Virus record (IMG/VR): IMGVR_UViG_3300033158_000302
From: an uncultured virus (IMG/VR IMGVR_UViG_3300033158_000302)
Lineage: Duplodnaviria > Heunggongvirae > Uroviricota > Caudoviricetes
Length of the DNA: 20,000 nt
Reading direction: 5' to 3' (one strand)
Positions 5,401-20,000 of the stretch are shown here, one piece after another; positions within the stretch are counted from its first letter, which is position 1, and every line of letters begins with the position of its first letter. The position numbers were made by a program, and so were the translations under genes. Below the pieces are notes generated by a model. The model saw only the letters and a program-made list of their open reading frames with translations. It made no database searches and had not been told where the DNA came from.

Positions 5401-6122
5401 GGGCCGCGCTGGCCGCGTCAGAGGCAGCAGCAATCAAAACGGCCGCTGCAGCCGCCGCGGCTACCGCCAGTGCTGGTGCCACAGCGGCCGGCGTCCTGTC
5501 CAAACAGCAAATCGCCGGATACTGGACCGGCGCCGGCGGCCCCGGCGGCACGGTCGCGCAGATCGCCGCCGCCATCACCGGCGGCGAATCCGGGTTCAAC
5601 CCCAACGCCATCCAGGCAGGGCAGCCACCCGGCCTCACTGGCTACGGCCTGTGGCAGATCACCCCCACCTCCGGCATCTGGCAAAACGGGGCGTTCGGGA
5701 ACCTGCTCGCGCCCACCAACAACGCCCGCGCCGCCGTCTACCTCTACCATCAGGCCGGCGACAGCTTCCGGCCCTGGGTCGTCTACAACACCGGCGCGTA
5801 CCTGAAATACATGAACGCCGGCGGGCTCGTCGGCGCCGGTTACGCCGCCGGCACCGGCAGCGCCGCCCCCGGCTGGGGCTGGGTCGGCGAGGAAGGCCCC
5901 GAACTGGTCCGGTTCCGCGGCGGCGAAACCATCTACGACGCCGCCACCTCCGCCGCCGCCGCGGCAGGCGGCGGAAACACCAGCGACAGCCTGCTCCGCG
6001 AAATCCGCGCACTGCACGCCACCCTGAACGACCTGCCCGCCCGGATCGCCGGGGGAGTCTCCAAAGCCGTCACCGCCCCCCAGCAAACCATGATCGCCGC
6101 CGCCCGCGCCGGTGCCCGCTAA
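2403..6122 (+). CDS. Tape measure protein with C-terminal lytic transglycosylase (SLT-like) domain (1239 aa)
   Basis: Long Ala/Gly-rich helical protein with hydrophobic segments. ESGFNPNA...GLWQI...NARAAVYLY...PW motif at about 5505-5813 and the GWVGEEGPELVRF motif near the C-terminus. Confidence 0.92.
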   Translation: MAFDAGEVLMHAALIFDQSASARSVRDAMDKGVAPTVKSAGASHGKTYADAFAKDADFSALKTKIADLGKNLQTARAKVDVDDKDARAKLAAFNVIWTKLSRDTATPRIDMTGFASAEARALALDAAMHKAGTDTDQAGASANRAGLNFVGASRGMYTLIAVAAGLGPALIPIGASLAAIALGAGSAFAAAAAPITVFGLTVKAQLSGIVDGYKQIQTLQKQAAAAPPGSAAQADALRKLALAQADYTKTFGPAAAGMKNLQDAWDKWKASTSGSTLPLLAQGMNLLAAALPKLRPLFDTGAQAAQRFLNAIQGWVKSGGLDQAIARLNTLAQAVLPHVESTITNVIRTAAPFAPMMADLGIKVAAGIDKATGSMAAWAASKGPGAMNSFLAYVQANGPKVFGLLENLAVAAVQIVRALSPMAPVSLAVANALAKLIASLPPGAIQAIVVAVIAWSGAMNVLGLASGNTGKAIAWLSRVSGLTGGLKALGTALKESAAAQWLLNASILGCPVTWIIAAIAALGVGFYIAWEKSALFRDIMKDIAKVMLSVGIVFLQAVKGMVDGFLSFVGTVINGAAKAFGWVPGLGPKLKGAAKAFNDMRDDVDGAFNRMIGNLQGWQRELDGSKTKSGEAAKSITADFGKQAKAAADARSDLDAFSTAITRNGQWSSAAQDARNKLANDLTKAGVNATTAQADVDRYSAAVAANGVKSQQAQQAREILIKDILDASGNAKAGQTDMTNLAAAIRLHGTTSNQYNGARATLIMDLKNTGMNAADANKLVDGLTNSIRNEGATSDFYKGSRGALIGDLKGAGLNSKDAATLIDTLTRSVQNQGTTSDSYKFARAVLIADLEKSGKTSQEAASLVDGLTGAIQGVPGSKNVNIVMNGDGSYTITGLGPRAIAGGPAQLAPLPPGKAAGGMITGGIRGMDSVIGLLMPGEVVVPEPLVRAGAVDHLRGILPGFAGGGLVSTGNTAILSGAAIDPMYRDWETQYTQAMVNKMRAALAASEAAAIKTAAAAAAATASAGATAAGVLSKQQIAGYWTGAGGPGGTVAQIAAAITGGESGFNPNAIQAGQPPGLTGYGLWQITPTSGIWQNGAFGNLLAPTNNARAAVYLYHQAGDSFRPWVVYNTGAYLKYMNAGGLVGAGYAAGTGSAAPGWGWVGEEGPELVRFRGGETIYDAATSAAAAAGGGNTSDSLLREIRALHATLNDLPARIAGGVSKAVTAPQQTMIAAARAGAR
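4365..4994 (+). repeat. Five tandem 42-aa (126-nt) degenerate repeats inside the tape measure protein
   Basis: Units begin DAFSTAITRNG, DRYSAAVAANG, TNLAAAIRLHG, DGLTNSIRNEG, DTLTRSVQNQG and share G..S......R..L..D. Confidence 0.8.
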
Positions 6123-15255: not shown

Positions 15256-15512
15256 CCGTCACACCCTCCGCCCCCGCGCACGGCGACACCGTGACCGCCA
15301 CTTACCATGTCACCGGCAACGACCCGGTGCCCGCACACTCGGCCACCATCGACGGTGACGTCACCGTCGGCAGCCAGGACCTGGCCGTCTCCACCACCAT
15401 CACCCTGCCCGGCACCCCGGCCCTGCCGCAGACGTTCGCTCTCCCCACCTGCCCGGGCCTGACCTTCAGCGCCACCGCCGACCCGGCTGTGTTCACCGCC
15501 GTCGTGCCCTGA
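15234..15512 (+). CDS. Small beta-rich, Ig-like hypothetical protein (92 aa)
   Basis: ATG at 15234 after AAAGGA; LTVTPSAPAHGDTVTATYHV strand pattern. Confidence 0.7.
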   Translation: MAISASLTVTPSAPAHGDTVTATYHVTGNDPVPAHSATIDGDVTVGSQDLAVSTTITLPGTPALPQTFALPTCPGLTFSATADPAVFTAVVP

Positions 15513-15631
15513 TGGCCACCATCAGCGGCAGCGTCCAGGTCGGCCCCGTCAGTTACCCGGTCACCGCCGCAATCACCCTGCCCCCCGCCGCCAGCAAACC
15601 CGGAAAGGCCACCCGCCGGCGGCCGGCCTGA
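15512..15631 (+). CDS. 39-aa microprotein paralogous to the middle of the upstream protein
   Basis: TGATG coupling; MATISGSVQVGPVSYPVTAAITLPPAASKPGKATRRRPA*. Too short for the supplied ORF track. Confidence 0.6.
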   Translation: MATISGSVQVGPVSYPVTAAITLPPAASKPGKATRRRPA

Positions 15632-15663
15632 TACCGTAACCGTGACGGAAGCTGTCGGCTAAA

Positions 15664-15701
15664 CGAAAGCGGCCCCCCAATCGCCCGGGGGGCCGCTTTC
15701 G
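15664..15701. terminator. Probable bidirectional intrinsic terminator
   Basis: Perfect 15-bp inverted repeat cgaaagcggcccccc / ggggggccgctttcg between convergent transcription units. Confidence 0.75.
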
Positions 15702-15721
15702 CGCTGTCCAGGGGTCAGTCA

Positions 15722-15970
15722 TTGACATCCTCCCCGCCCTGAACGGCGGGGATTCCACGGAGCGGTTTCAAGCTAGGCACCCTCAGCATAAGGCAGGGCG
15801 GGCACCGGTTTTGCTGTCCGGTATAGCCCGCCCCGCTCGTTGACCTCTCCCACGGGAGAGGAAGTGCCTAGCCGCCGCTCCGTGGGGGTTCCTGCTTCAG
15901 CGCGGCAATGCCAGGTTGCCCTGGTCTTACGTCCGCTCCACAGGCGTGACTTCCCGCCAGCCCGGCGGTA
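15722..15970 (-). ncRNA. TnpB omegaRNA (reRNA)-like scaffold
   Basis: GCCTGTGGAGCGGACGTAAGACC...TGAAGCAGGAA...GGAATCCCCGCCGTTCAGGGCGGGGAGGATGTCAA, the layout typical of IS605 right ends. The 5' boundary is approximate. Confidence 0.7.
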
Positions 15971-16051
15971 GACGCTTGCGCGCACCTGTACGCTACCCCA
16001 GTTTCCGGGCTAACCCCGCCCTGAACGGCGGGGCCTGTGCCCGGCATCGCG
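15722..16051 (-). mobile_element. Non-autonomous IS200/IS605-family element (PATE/MITE-like) with tnpB internally deleted
   Basis: Identical 20-bp hairpins ccccgccctgaacggcgggg at 15732-15751 and 16014-16033. Right end ...GAGGATGTCAA. TnpB C-terminal remnant AGLAGSHACGADVRP...KQEP. TGAC directly 5' of the left end. Confidence 0.85.
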
Positions 16052-16056
16052 GTCAG

Positions 16057-17859
16057 TCAGTCACGCGGAGGTACAGCCACCGGCCCGGCGCCCCCCAGCA
16101 CCGTGCCGGCCGGCACCGGCGCCGTGGCCGGCTGCCACGGGATCCGGGAACCGGCAGGGGCCGCCGGCGTATCCTCCCACGGCCACGGCGCGTCCCGGCC
16201 CGCACCCACCATCCCGATCAGCTTGAAACTCGCATCGGTCAGGCCACCGAACGTGTGCCGGTTCGTCCCGCCAGAAGCCATCGCCCCCGCCGTGTAGCCG
16301 CCGAAATTCCACAAGAACACCGGCACGTCCGCGGACACCATCTCATCGATCCGCCGCGGCGGGCCGCCCCCATACCCGGCCATGTTCGAGGCCAGCCAGC
16401 CCGGCCGGGTCTGCTCATCGGTGATGATCACGACCTGGGTGACGTCCGGGGTCAGCCACTTCGCCAGCGCCCGCGGAATATCGGTACCCTCCCGCACCCC
16501 CGGCTCGCGCGACTGCGGGCTGAACTCATCCACCAGCCCGAGCAGATCAGCGTGCGGCCGGAACCGGATCTGCCGCGAATCACCCCAGAATTCGGCGAGC
16601 ACCGCCTGCTCGGACCGCAACGCCAGCGCCGCCCCGAACAACGCCGCCGCATCCGCCCACGTCATCTGCGAATGCTCACTGAACGGCTGCAACCACATCG
16701 ACGGGGACCGGTCCACCAGAATCAGCACCTTCCCCGGCAGCCGCGGCACATTAGCCAGCGAAGACGTCAGGGCCTGCTGCAACGGCCACGCCCACCGCAG
16801 CCCCGCCGCCCGGCGCGCCGACAAGAACCGGAACGGGAACAGGCCCGACGCGGCGACCGCCTCCGGGTTCGCCAGCTTGGCCGCGACCCGGGCCGCCACC
16901 TCATCAGACATGCCCGTCTCATCCATCGCGCGCAGGTTCGACAGCAACGCCCCATACGGCATCACCGGCACAAGCGCCTCCCACAGCCGCGCCTTATCCA
17001 CCGGCTGCCCGGCCTGCCCCGCCGCCGACAGCACATTCTGCCAGGTCAGCCCGGCCGCATCGAGCCGGGCCGTGTCCGCCAGCACCGCCGGGTCCGCGAC
17101 CGCCTCGGCCAGCAGCGACTCACGGCGCCGCGCCATCGCCGCCACCCCCGCCGGAGGCATACCCCGGCCATGCCGGCGGGCGATCAGCCACTCCCACAAC
17201 CGGGCCTGCCCGGTGTCCCACGCCTGCCGGTGATACCGCGGATTGACCAGCTCCACCACGTCACCGAACCGGAACGGCGCATCCTCCGTGTCATACTTCA
17301 GCACCGTGTACGGCGTCCACAACCGGGGCAGCACATCGGCGATACCCCGCTTGACCGCCACCGGCAGACGCCGCCCATAGGTTTCCAGCCAGTACACGAT
17401 CAGCTCCGCCGGTTCATCGGCGCGGCGCAGCACCGACCCGATCACCCGCCGCGCGCTAGCCTCCGGCGCGGTCACCGGCGCCAGCACCGGTGACCCGTCC
17501 GCGCGGACCGCCCCCAGCGCCGCCGCGAGCCGGCGGGCCGCCACGAAATCAGCGGCACCCTCAACCGGCGCCAGCCGCAGCCCACCCGGGCCGCGCAGCC
17601 AGCCGAGCAGCCCCGCCGTCCACACCGGATCCGTGACCGCAGCCTCACGGACCATCGCGTGGAACCGGGTCACCCGCTCATCGCGTCCCTCATGCACGGT
17701 TTTCTCACCCGGCAGATACCCGGCCGCGAGCAGAAACAGCGCGCTCCGCAAATCGCGGGTGACCGCCGGGGCGCCCAGCGCCGTCAGCTCCCCCGTCGCC
17801 GCCCCGAACACCGGCGACGTCGCCACCGTGTGAACCCGGCCCCGATTCCGCTTCGTCAC
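16057..17859 (-). CDS. TROVE-domain Ro60/Rsr-like RNA-binding protein with C-terminal VWA domain (600 aa)
   Basis: GTG at 17859 after GGAGGAG. TROVE-type segments LFLLA, DPVWTAGLLGWLR, RADEPAE, VKRGIAD, ALLSNLRAM, LFPFRFLSA. VWA motifs ILVDRSPSM, GTD, VVIITDEQ, WNFGGY. Confidence 0.9.
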   Translation of the reverse strand: MTKRNRGRVHTVATSPVFGAATGELTALGAPAVTRDLRSALFLLAAGYLPGEKTVHEGRDERVTRFHAMVREAAVTDPVWTAGLLGWLRGPGGLRLAPVEGAADFVAARRLAAALGAVRADGSPVLAPVTAPEASARRVIGSVLRRADEPAELIVYWLETYGRRLPVAVKRGIADVLPRLWTPYTVLKYDTEDAPFRFGDVVELVNPRYHRQAWDTGQARLWEWLIARRHGRGMPPAGVAAMARRRESLLAEAVADPAVLADTARLDAAGLTWQNVLSAAGQAGQPVDKARLWEALVPVMPYGALLSNLRAMDETGMSDEVAARVAAKLANPEAVAASGLFPFRFLSARRAAGLRWAWPLQQALTSSLANVPRLPGKVLILVDRSPSMWLQPFSEHSQMTWADAAALFGAALALRSEQAVLAEFWGDSRQIRFRPHADLLGLVDEFSPQSREPGVREGTDIPRALAKWLTPDVTQVVIITDEQTRPGWLASNMAGYGGGPPRRIDEMVSADVPVFLWNFGGYTAGAMASGGTNRHTFGGLTDASFKLIGMVGAGRDAPWPWEDTPAAPAGSRIPWQPATAPVPAGTVLGGAGPVAVPPRD

Positions 17860-17887
17860 GATCTCTCCTCCAGACAGGGGAGAGACC
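17860..17887 (-). promoter_or_regulatory. Hairpin covering the TROVE ribosome binding site
   Basis: Minus strand GGUCUCUCC pairs with GGAGAGAUC and ends immediately before the GTG start. Confidence 0.55.
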
Positions 17888-17900
17888 ACAGCTATGCGCG

Positions 17901-17999
17901 AAGGCGCCGCCCGATAACAAGACGGCAACCGCTGGACCCACCAAGAGGTCCTCCGACCCAAACGAAGTAGCGGTCCCCTGGCACTTCGGGCGGCACCTT
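17901..17999 (-). ncRNA. Putative Y-RNA-like ncRNA, gene-proximal unit
   Basis: 81-nt core (17910-17990) repeated at 18021-18101; closed by a 14-bp stem AAGGUGCCGCCCGA/UCGGGCGGCGCCUU; directly upstream of a Ro60 homolog. Confidence 0.75.
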
Positions 18000-18014
18000 G
18001 CAGCAAGCATCATG

Positions 18015-18107
18015 GCCTCCCCCGATAACAAGACGGCGACCGCTGGACCACCGAAGGGGTCCTCCGTTGAATGCGAAGTAACGGTCCCCTGGCACTTCGG
18101 GAGAAGC
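18015..18107 (-). ncRNA. Putative Y-RNA-like ncRNA, gene-distal unit
   Basis: Same core, closed by a different stem GCUUCUCCCGA/UCGGGGGAGGC whose wobble pairs form only on the minus strand; internal cUUCGg hairpin. Confidence 0.75.
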
Positions 18108-18115
18108 ACCACCCC

Positions 18116-18121
18116 ACCCTA
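18116..18121 (-). promoter_or_regulatory. Possible -10 element for the RNA-TROVE transcript
   Basis: TAGGGT (TANNNT type) 8 nt upstream of the first RNA stem; no convincing -35. Confidence 0.3.
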
Positions 18122-18218
18122 AACCCCGCACCCGCCCAGCGCCAGAAGATTAAACAGGCCCCCGCCCCGCCCAGCCTGGTGTTAGCCTCCCCCCGACCGC
18201 ACCCAACGGGAGGAAACC

Positions 18219-20000
18219 GTGTCCACCCCTGCCACCCCGCCGGCGCTCGGCCGCCGCCCCGCCGACCCCGCCCGGTACGCCAACACAATCCTGCTGCGCC
18301 TCACCGGCGCCGTGCCCGCACACCCCCTCATCGCCGACCACCTGTCCAAAGTCCCTGCCTGGATGCTCGGCGGCAACGACCGCTACGGGACCTGCCTGAC
18401 GCCAGAGACGAAGGTTCTCACAGCAGACCTGCTGTGGGTTCCGGTCGGCGAGCTGGCTGAAGGTGACCACCTCCTGGGCTTCGACGAGCTTCCGCGCGGA
18501 GGCAACGCCGGTCGGCAGTACTGCCGCAGTGTCGTCGAAGACGCCAAGGTTGTCCGGAAAGAGTGCTACGACCTCGTGTTCGAGGACGGCACTCACGTGC
18601 GCTGTTCCGCTGACCACCGCTGGCTCGTCTCCAGTACGGTGCAGGGGCAGCTTCAGACACAGCAGTGGCTCAGGACCGATGAAATGCGCGCAAGCGCGCC
18701 GCGGCAGACCAAGGTCATCAAGCCGCTGGACGTCTGGGAGACAGATGACTCCCGCGCCGCTGGCTATCTCGCTGCCGCCTTCGACGGGGAGGGCTGCTTG
18801 GAACAGACCCGGCACGGCAAGTACGCCAACCGGGTCAACTTCGTCCAATCCGACAATCCCATGCTGGCGGAAGCCGAGCGGTGCCTGAAGGAACTCGGCT
18901 ACCCGTTCAATCACACGATCACTTCGAGCGGTCAGCGACTGCGCGTGGACGGTACGCGGCGGTTCGACAAGCACCGTCTTGAGGTCAGCCCGCGGTCAGA
19001 GTACATCCGTTTCCTGGGCTCGGTGCGGCCAGTCAGGCTCTTGCCCAAGCTGGAGATCGGTCGGCTTGGCCGCATCGACGGCCGCGCGGTCCGGCTCGTC
19101 AGCATCGAACGAGCTGGTATCCGCGACGTAGTGAAGCTCGAAACCTCGTCAAAGACCTACTTCGCTGCGGGCTTGGCCTCACATAATTGTGGTCCGACAT
19201 ATGTGGCCAACCTGGCCGTGCTCACCTGGAAATACTTGCTTGGCCTCGACATCAGCGTCAGCGACGACGCCATCTTCGACCTGTACCGACGGTCCGGGAA
19301 CCCCAACTTTGACCCGGCCACCGACGCGGACGACAACGGTGTCGACATGACCGTCATGCTGTCCGCGCTCGTGTCCGGCGGCATCACCATCACCCACAGC
19401 GACGGCGGCACCGAACTGGTCAAGCCGATCTGCTTCGCCAAACACGGCACCGGCGTCGACCTGGTCCGCGCCGTCACCTCGATATTCGGCGCGTCCGGGC
19501 TCGGCGTCGACCTCGACGTCGCCCAGCAAACCCAAACCGACGCGCACCTATGGGACTACGTAGCCAACTCGCCCGGCTGGGGCGGGCACGCCATCCCCGG
19601 CGGCGCCTACACCAGCTCCGCCGCCCCCGGCACCGCCGACGTCACCTGCATCACCTGGACCGAAAAAGTCGGCATGACCGACCTGTTCATCTCCCGGCAG
19701 CTCGCCGAAGCCTACGCCGTCGTGTGGCAGCCGCTATGGGACCATCCCGCCTTCCAGGCCGGCGTCGACCAGGCCGCCCTCGCCGCCGACTACACCGCCT
19801 GCACCGGCCGGCCATTCCCGCTGCCCGTCCCGCCAGGCCCGCCCGGGCCAGCCGTCCGCATCGACCCCGCCGACCAGGCCCTGCACGACAACACCCACGT
19901 GCGGGCATTCCTGGCCGGTCACCGCGGCAGTGAAGTCTTCCAGGCCGCCGGCGCGATCCTCGACTGGGAACGCGCCAAAGGATTCACCACCATCCCCTGA
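18219..20000 (+). CDS. Intein-containing papain-like cysteine peptidase (593-aa precursor, 328 aa spliced)
   Basis: GTG after GGGAGG. Spliced motif WMLGGNDRYGT|CGPTYVAN, then DDNG, GGHAI and CITW. Confidence 0.8.
   Translation: MSTPATPPALGRRPADPARYANTILLRLTGAVPAHPLIADHLSKVPAWMLGGNDRYGTCLTPETKVLTADLLWVPVGELAEGDHLLGFDELPRGGNAGRQYCRSVVEDAKVVRKECYDLVFEDGTHVRCSADHRWLVSSTVQGQLQTQQWLRTDEMRASAPRQTKVIKPLDVWETDDSRAAGYLAAAFDGEGCLEQTRHGKYANRVNFVQSDNPMLAEAERCLKELGYPFNHTITSSGQRLRVDGTRRFDKHRLEVSPRSEYIRFLGSVRPVRLLPKLEIGRLGRIDGRAVRLVSIERAGIRDVVKLETSSKTYFAAGLASHNCGPTYVANLAVLTWKYLLGLDISVSDDAIFDLYRRSGNPNFDPATDADDNGVDMTVMLSALVSGGITITHSDGGTELVKPICFAKHGTGVDLVRAVTSIFGASGLGVDLDVAQQTQTDAHLWDYVANSPGWGGHAIPGGAYTSSAAPGTADVTCITWTEKVGMTDLFISRQLAEAYAVVWQPLWDHPAFQAGVDQAALAADYTACTGRPFPLPVPPGPPGPAVRIDPADQALHDNTHVRAFLAGHRGSEVFQAAGAILDWERAKGFTTIP
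18393..19187 (+). mobile_element. Intein (265 aa) with one LAGLIDADG motif
   Basis: Block A CLTPETKVLTAD, block B VRCSADHRWLV, LAGLIDADG-like GYLAAAFDGEGC, terminal YFAAGLASHN followed by Cys+1. Confidence 0.93.

Follow-up and report, generated by a model that had tools for sequence, protein, structure and literature searches.

The 20,000-nucleotide (nt) stretch of DNA analysed here (the window), from the uncultured virus of IMG/VR record IMGVR_UViG_3300033158_000302, carries on its minus strand a TROVE/Ro60 (Rsr-like) gene and, directly upstream of it, a tandem pair of short repeated units. We conclude, with considerable confidence, that these units are two small Y RNA genes encoding partners of the Ro60 protein, and that they are probably co-transcribed with the TROVE gene and then excised from the transcript. 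We call them Y RNAs because of the homology of a structural handle, the covariation of the family to which they belong, and their strand and position. On these sequence-based grounds the units belong to the Y RNA family but fall outside its tRNA-like YrlA subclass, and the locus represents a further example of a system already known from phages and bacteria.

The TROVE gene (16057-17859, minus strand) has a GTG start and encodes a protein of 600 amino acids that matches Pfam TROVE (E 2.9e-13) and the phage family phrog_850, annotated as 'RNA-binding protein' (E 1.1e-26). The protein has 2794 homologues at E<=1e-20, with a top identity of 56% and alignment coverage of 93-96%, and all of the 96 columns that are invariant in an alignment of 45 sequences (the protein and 44 relatives) are kept in the phage protein. 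Its von Willebrand factor A (vWA) domain contains a motif of the MIDAS (metal ion-dependent adhesion site) type, VDRSPSM (DxSxS), in which D383, S385 and S387 are invariant. The features by which a Ro60/Rsr protein is recognized, namely a TROVE domain, a vWA domain with MIDAS and full-length similarity to Rsr-type proteins, are thus all found in the 600-residue product. The GC content at the three codon positions of the gene is 0.74/0.56/0.87. At the C-terminus (window 16057-16180) the protein has a Pro/Ala-rich tail of about 40 residues, and most relatives end earlier, matching residues 1-559 to 1-567. A search of IMG/VR with patterns taken from the protein gave no match.

The two units came up in a repeat search as a single direct-repeat family of 88 nt, the copies of which (17903-17990 and 18014-18101) are 83% identical at a spacing of 111. 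Both RNAs would be read from the minus strand. The distal one, unit A, spans 18009-18112 (covariance-model core 18016-18106), its outer stem P1 reaching 18112/18009 in the minimum-energy fold; the proximal one, unit B, spans 17901-17999 (core 17905-17995), as delimited by the repeat, the fold and the covariance model R2 described below, and ends 41 nt before the TROVE start codon. Both therefore lie where Y RNAs are expected to lie, close to a Ro60/TROVE gene, upstream of it and on its strand. An earlier reading of this DNA, made from its letters and open reading frames (ORFs) (hereafter the sequence-only reading), had described two near-identical 81-nt cores at this place; the tandem units stand, whereas 'near-identical' was generous, as identity over those columns is about 85%. 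Over the 91-nt cores, 72 of 91 columns are identical. Among the 19 variable columns, ten fall in the two hairpin loops and nine in stems, seven of them in P1 and two in the inner stem P2, and standard pairing is retained in every case. Three P1 pairs are altered on both sides, and the P2 differences are GC/GU wobble switches (GACCGUU/AGCGGUC versus GACCGCU/AGCGGUU), exactly as had been noted, so that the outer stems differ and yet pair, and the inner differences preserve pairing. The internal loop (5' AGUGCCA, 3' GUCUUGUUA) is unchanged between the units, with 16/16 positions identical.

The minimum-energy folds of both units consist of a long stem with an asymmetric internal loop, followed by a three-way junction with two hairpins, which is the architecture that the sequence-only reading had drawn. 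In P1, the 5' and 3' ends pair over 10-14 bp, and the stem closes in CCCGA/UCGGG, placing CGAAG at the edge of the internal loop; the head of each unit contains a UACUUCG...CGGAG hairpin and then a GGACC...GGUCC hairpin. On the minus strand the units fold at -54.1 and -45.1 kcal/mol (z -2.96 and -1.56), compared with -43.0 and -32.4 kcal/mol (z -2.32 and 0.02) on the plus strand; these lower energies favor the minus strand, in agreement with the earlier proposal. The segment 17700-18300 was found without differing letters in contigs of four wetland metagenome runs, which offer no natural variants for a test of the pairing; two of those assemblies stop at 18018 and 18033, within the tandem repeat.

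Comparison with other loci extends this picture from two copies to a family. Covariance model R1 was built from units A and B only, and R2 from 53 R1 matches; the loci searched were 160 that encode relatives of the TROVE protein, 80 metagenomic and 80 from actinobacterial genomes, and the E-values of both models are rough, given a short calibration. R1, which scores 112 bits on unit A itself, found foreign matches with E<=0.15 in the metagenomic loci (32/32 on the TROVE strand) and matches in the genomic loci (46/46 on the TROVE strand), most of them 50-500 nt upstream of the TROVE gene. R2 scores unit A at 66.1 bits (E 1.3e-12) and unit B at 67.2 bits (E 7.1e-13), and at E<=0.01 it gave 163 and 177 matches (340 in the 160 loci), 100% of which are on the TROVE strand. 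Tandem arrangement is common, with at least two family matches in 116 of the 144 loci that have matches. RNAalifold, applied to a MAFFT alignment of 33 short members, recovers P1 and P2, with both-side changes in 9 of 13 pairs. Moreover, in 145 distinct model-aligned sequences 85.4% of cells pair, as against 67.1% in shuffles (a value reached by 0/500), 21 of 24 pairs show changes on both sides, and slid controls pair at 24.7-57.8%. On this comparative evidence the family is a structured RNA. The covariance model of TROVE-upstream regions that the sequence-only reading had proposed as a check thus found covarying homologs, all of them on the TROVE strand, and the units resemble other Y RNAs in being homologous to RNAs beside other Ro60 genes. 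By contrast, an exact IMG/VR search with a 17-mer of the handle returned one match, in a low-GC and unrelated sequence (L001), which we regard as a chance match.

These results also bear on the idea that the repeat is a DNA-level element, such as a set of iterons, a recombination site or a tRNA-derived attachment site, rather than an RNA gene. The intergenic position of the tandem direct repeat, with divergent genes on either side, would suit such an element, and the break of two assemblies within the repeat is in line with it. However, its G-U pairs favor one strand, ARAGORN detects no tRNA, the family covaries as RNA, and all 340 of 340 family matches are on the TROVE strand, so we consider this explanation hardly credible.

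What the family has in common is a handle, in which a terminal stem that closes with CCCG(A/G) leads, through an internal loop (CGAA/CGGU), to a second stem, after which UACUUC opens a small hairpin. The consensus of the internal loop is 5' (A/U)G(U/C)GC.A and 3' ..YUUG(A/U)U(C/A). Its two strands co-vary as blocks in the family alignment, 5' GAAGUGC occurring with 3' CCGUU(A/G)UC and 5' GGUGCGC with 3' YUUGAUCUC, and the phage units are mixed in this respect, as they combine GAAGUGC with CUUGUUAUC. No standard pairs can be drawn that account for this pattern, which may reflect non-canonical pairs or co-adaptation with the protein.

The heads, on the other hand, range widely. Among the 300 best R2-family matches, 156 are longer than 120 nt, and the T-arm motif is present in 149 of these, usually together with GUAGCUCA...GAGC; by their sequence, such long T-arm members are classical tRNA-mimicking YrlA RNAs. 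Another 113 are at most 95 nt long, with the T-arm motif missing in 109, and 31 are of intermediate length. R1, although built from the phage units only, also matched long forms (L025:1459-1598, L016:1380-1516, L092:2309-2447 and L007:2028-2167), which the Rfam YrlA model RF02553 scores at 33.5-42.3 bits (E 1.5e-6 to 5.7e-4; gathering threshold 69 bits). Furthermore, the consensus handle of RF02553, cggCgaAUGC...AcUuGucGccg, corresponds to GCCCGAAGUGC...UCUUGUUAUCGGGC in the phage. Because R1 and RF02553 match the same long forms, the phage units are linked through the handle to verified Y RNAs. The suggestion that the units are of Y RNA type and tied to TROVE/Ro60 is therefore borne out by R1 relatives upstream of TROVE genes elsewhere, some of which are tRNA-like and recognized by RF02553. 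In contrast, the accompanying proposal of a new 'reduced Y RNA class' is not supported, because T-arm-free members with the same handle are common (109 among the 300 best matches), similar two-hairpin units occur in the sequenced phages BRock, GiJojo and Alone3, and short Y RNAs have been published (PMC4201824 and PMC12135203).

In several of the loci searched (L121, L096, L098, L113, L120, L126, L133 and L054), the TROVE gene and its Y RNAs come after long arrays of tRNA genes, 15 tRNAs according to Rfam in L121 and, in the other seven, arrays judged from runs of the T-arm motif. The same order is that of large actinophages.

The absence of T and D arms from the units, as described in the sequence-only reading, was confirmed. 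A regular-expression search for the T-arm motif found none in 15400-18400 (the sole match in the window, at 5593, lies within coding sequence), ARAGORN predicted no tRNA in the window, and Rfam at gathering threshold gave no match over the whole window. The arms that define the YrlA subclass, that is, a T arm with a GGUUCGA loop, an acceptor-like stem and a D arm, are all missing from the units, and RF02553 does not match them at all, let alone at its threshold of 69 bits. In the YrlA nomenclature of Chen et al. (2014, PMC4201824), which distinguishes V, T, AS and D arms, the first hairpin of the phage units takes the place of the V arm and the second that of the T arm, with nothing corresponding to the AS and D arms. 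The second hairpin presumably derives from a T arm. By our reading of the alignment, its loops, CCUUCGGU and UCUUGGUG, do not fit a T loop.

Such a structure invites the view that the units are decaying remnants of tRNA-like YrlA RNAs that have lost the D and acceptor arms and are no longer functional: handle, V hairpin and second hairpin are just what remains of YrlA once its acceptor-like and D arms are removed, and the loops of the second hairpin are unfit as T loops. Yet 19 of 91 columns have diverged between the units while all stems still pair and the internal loop is intact, which indicates selection, and short members are abundant and conserved in cellular loci. Decay is thus a very unlikely origin.

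There are several points that weigh against the units being Y RNA genes that give rise to released RNAs. Firstly, the Rfam Y_RNA, YrlA and tRNA models give no match at E<=10 on 15400-18400 or on the 251-nt segment 17880-18130; the same result answers a check proposed in the sequence-only reading, which had named a strong full-length YrlA match as the outcome that would remove the novelty. Secondly, although a 5'-3' stem flanking a bulge with CGAA is found in both units, as in Y RNAs, they read CCCGAAG where the published motif is GNCGAAN0-1G, the first G being replaced by C. Thirdly, the alignment of 145 sequences was fitted to the structure of the model and so leans towards it. Finally, no terminator separates unit B from the gene, so that the units could act solely as part of the mRNA leader.

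The last point deserves particular attention, as the units might be cis-acting leader structures of the TROVE mRNA, serving for example in autoregulation by Ro60, instead of released RNAs that act in trans. They are directly upstream of the gene and on the same strand, nothing resembling a terminator separates unit B from the start codon (scanning placed its sole 'terminator' inside unit A), and a hairpin pairs the Shine-Dalgarno sequence. This hairpin (17860-17887, minus strand, 9-11 bp) directly precedes the GTG start and covers the Shine-Dalgarno sequence GGAGGAGAG (17863-17871) in the ViennaRNA fold of 17851-17900 (-19.7 kcal/mol); if it forms as modeled, it could couple translation to processing or to binding by Ro60. 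However, the homologous RNAs of Mycobacterium smegmatis are excised from a precursor and co-purify with Rsr (PMC4201824), and members of the family in the Arthrobacter phage Atuin are also found downstream of the Ro gene (L163 3138-3724), which a leader role does not explain. In addition, a leader role and a Y RNA role are compatible with each other. We therefore regard it as improbable that the units are leader structures in place of Y RNAs.

With the units taken as Y RNA genes, we infer their transcription, processing, binding by the protein and effect on host RNA decay as follows. A single promoter upstream of unit A would drive both units and the Ro60 gene. A strict sigma-70 promoter scan found no promoter; a candidate -10 element, TAGGGT (18116-18121, minus strand), about 5-8 nt before the 5' end of the terminal stem of unit A, fits a -10 consensus of the TANNNT type. 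The transcript might run on to a GC-rich hairpin, CCCCGCC-GUUCAG-GGCGGGG (16014-16033, minus strand), which lies 24 nt past the TROVE stop codon, has no U tract and is likely the terminator of the cassette. The units would then be cut from the precursor, as are YrlA and YrlB of M. smegmatis. By analogy with known Ro60 particles, the handle, with its terminal stem, CGAAG-bearing internal loop and second stem, may dock on the ring of the phage Ro60, and the two-hairpin head may, during infection, either act as a gate to this ring or tether it to a host factor, for example PNPase.

The window covers 20 kb of a 123.6-kb (123,632-bp) contig and consists of high-GC DNA of a wetland phage. Its plus-strand genes include those for a major tail protein, a tape measure protein, minor tail proteins and a GH25/PG_binding_1 endolysin. 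The TROVE gene and both units are contained in a short minus-strand island at 15513-18218 and thus run against the tail and lysis genes, as the sequence-only reading had noted when it suggested that the cassette may be expressed in a lysogen; among the 22 ORFs scanned, none was recognized as an integrase or repressor. On the other side of the units, the neighboring gene from 18219 on is a plus-strand gene whose GC pattern is of the coding type, and the 112 nt between this gene and the repeat therefore form a divergent intergenic region. A search for close relatives of 15500-18400 among sequenced phages gave no match.

The non-coding region downstream of the TROVE gene, 15513-16056, contains further structured elements. 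The 20-nt GC-rich hairpin, CCCCGCCCTGAACGGCGGGG, occurs in two exact copies, at 15732-15751 and 16014-16033, each with a GTSAMTGACTGACC-like word nearby (15713-15726 and 16051-16064), and the two are possibly terminators that bracket a unit of about 260 nt. A perfect 15-bp inverted repeat at 15664-15701 (CGAAAGCGGCCCCCC / GGGGGGCCGCTTTCG, with an 8-nt loop) separates the convergent plus-strand genes from the TROVE cassette and is likely a two-way terminator. Between the hairpin copies there is a 131-nt multi-branched element (15755-15885; -84.6 kcal/mol) with long perfect stems of 11 bp (CCACGGAGCGG/CCGCUCCGUGG) and 8 bp (CUAGGCAC/GUGCCUAG); the z scores of the surrounding 357 nt (15700-16056), -6.7 (minus strand) and -6.3 (plus strand), show no strand preference. 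By eye, this element resembles a third Y RNA, two stems being separated by a CUUGAAA bulge and followed by a CACUUCC hairpin, but we rejected it as a member of the family, because both strands fold equally well and R2, run unfiltered, gave only matches to the GC hairpin of at most 15 bits. The weak match of 15713-15806 to the Rfam model HgcC (23.3 bits; gathering threshold 50) was likewise rejected, as it is due to the GC hairpin. No relatives of the 131-nt element were found in the fetched loci or in sequenced phages, and a distant search with 15513-16056 against sequenced phages gave no match.

The only unusual point of the locus is that a tRNA-like Y RNA is absent, a statement that rests on 20 kb of the 123.6-kb contig. 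The next-best R2 score elsewhere in the window is 15.1 bits, that is, the window holds no tRNA-like Y RNA. The T-arm motif is missing from 11 of the 154 loci whose upstream sequence is at least 400 nt long, and only in L003, L087, L088 and L101 are all members free of a T arm. It is conceivable, but rather doubtful, that the phage runs its Ro60 particle entirely without a tRNA-mimicking Y RNA. If it does so, the two-hairpin head would be a distinct docking module for another host factor, and the particle might have an additional partner or substrate RNA in the 131-nt structure at 15755-15885. The role of the tRNA-like module could also be probed with the help of a natural Ro60 locus whose Y RNAs are all free of a T arm.

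More generally, Y RNAs appear to be modular, with one conserved handle whose head ranges from one hairpin up to a complete tRNA mimic, the different forms often being neighbors in arrays of two to five genes. This has consequences for annotation. The Rfam YrlA model misses the short forms and scores the long actinobacterial forms below threshold; at gathering, RF02553 had no match in 20 loci with T-arm-bearing units. Also, sequenced actinophages hold unannotated Y RNA arrays, some annotated 'tRNA' genes lying inside them. The contribution of the window itself is modest: one more clear case of the Ro60/Y RNA system, in a phage.

The closest known systems include that of the YrlA RNAs (RF02553; Salmonella Typhimurium and M. 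smegmatis). RNAs of the YrlA type, at most 4 kb from Ro60 and encoded on its strand, have been reported in 254 bacteria and 22 phages (PMC4201824). Like them, the phage units adjoin a Ro60/TROVE gene on the same strand and have a CGAA-type terminal stem, an asymmetric loop with 3' CUUG, a second stem and a hairpin at the V position; unlike them, they have no T arm, acceptor-like stem or D arm and are 91-104 nt long, compared with about 135-147 nt. Short Y RNAs without a full tRNA-like domain, YrlB and Yrn2, were described in the same study (Chen et al. 2014, PMC4201824), in which YrlA and YrlB of M. smegmatis were found upstream of rsr, processed from one precursor and co-purifying with Rsr. 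YrlB and Yrn2 are additional Ro60-bound RNAs in tandem with YrlA, described as long hairpins with a small loop, and the phage units are similar to them in having no complete tRNA-like domain. M. smegmatis YrlB keeps a possible T arm, whereas the two small hairpins of the phage units are without a T loop, and the species with YrlB or Yrn2 also possess a tRNA-like YrlA or Yrn1, unlike the window. The printed probe for M. smegmatis YrlB suggests, in a comparison made by eye only, that this RNA belongs to the UACUUCAAGGUUCGA class of L039 and L141.

In the Thermus phage phiLo, the RNAs Yrl1 and Yrl2, encoded upstream of the Ro60 gene, are bound by the phage Ro60, which complexes with the host PNPase (PMC12135203, 2025). 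Two hairpins are present in one of them and only one in the other, and in each an internal bulge contains CGAA (PMC12135203). The arrangement in the window is the same, as two Y-like RNAs, each with a stem of its 5' and 3' ends and with CGAA in an internal bulge, come before a phage Ro60 gene. On the other hand, phiLo belongs to a different phylum, the RNAs could be compared by description only, and the proteins are distant: phiLo Ro60 (PDB 9KOP, 9L5Y) is the only one with solved structures that match the TROVE protein by sequence, at E 3.7e-15 over about 215 residues.

We also sampled eight actinophages with Ro-like genes (BRock, Atuin, Kela, VanLee, Rabbitrun, Alone3, GiJojo and Quantum; L162-L169). 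One to six family matches flank the Ro-like gene in each, at least two in seven of the eight (Kela has one), and none of them is annotated; in Atuin, members lie on both sides of the gene. A tRNA-like member is present in 8/8. Annotated tRNA genes in Alone3 (tRNA-Ser, L167 863-936), GiJojo (tRNA-Arg, L168 1167-1241) and VanLee (tRNA-Arg, L165 1099-1170) fall within full-length Y RNA matches (856-1005, 1160-1310 and 1096-1237, respectively); given this position, they probably represent tRNA-like domains within YrlA-type RNAs rather than tRNAs. Our literature search brought up no account of actinophage arrays of Y RNAs free of a T arm, although the supplements of PMC4201824, with their lists for the 22 phages and their alignments, may cover related cases. 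Such T-arm-free units, none of them annotated, do occur in the Streptomyces phages BRock (L162 1076-1174), GiJojo (L168 964-1062) and Alone3 (L167 661-755), where they have two hairpins. These units are low in GC, score 18.5-27.3 bits with R2 and have a tRNA-like member beside the gene, all of which sets them apart from the window. With the units of the window they share the handle, the UACUUC hairpin, a second short GC-rich hairpin, the lack of a T-arm motif and a position upstream of a Ro-like gene.

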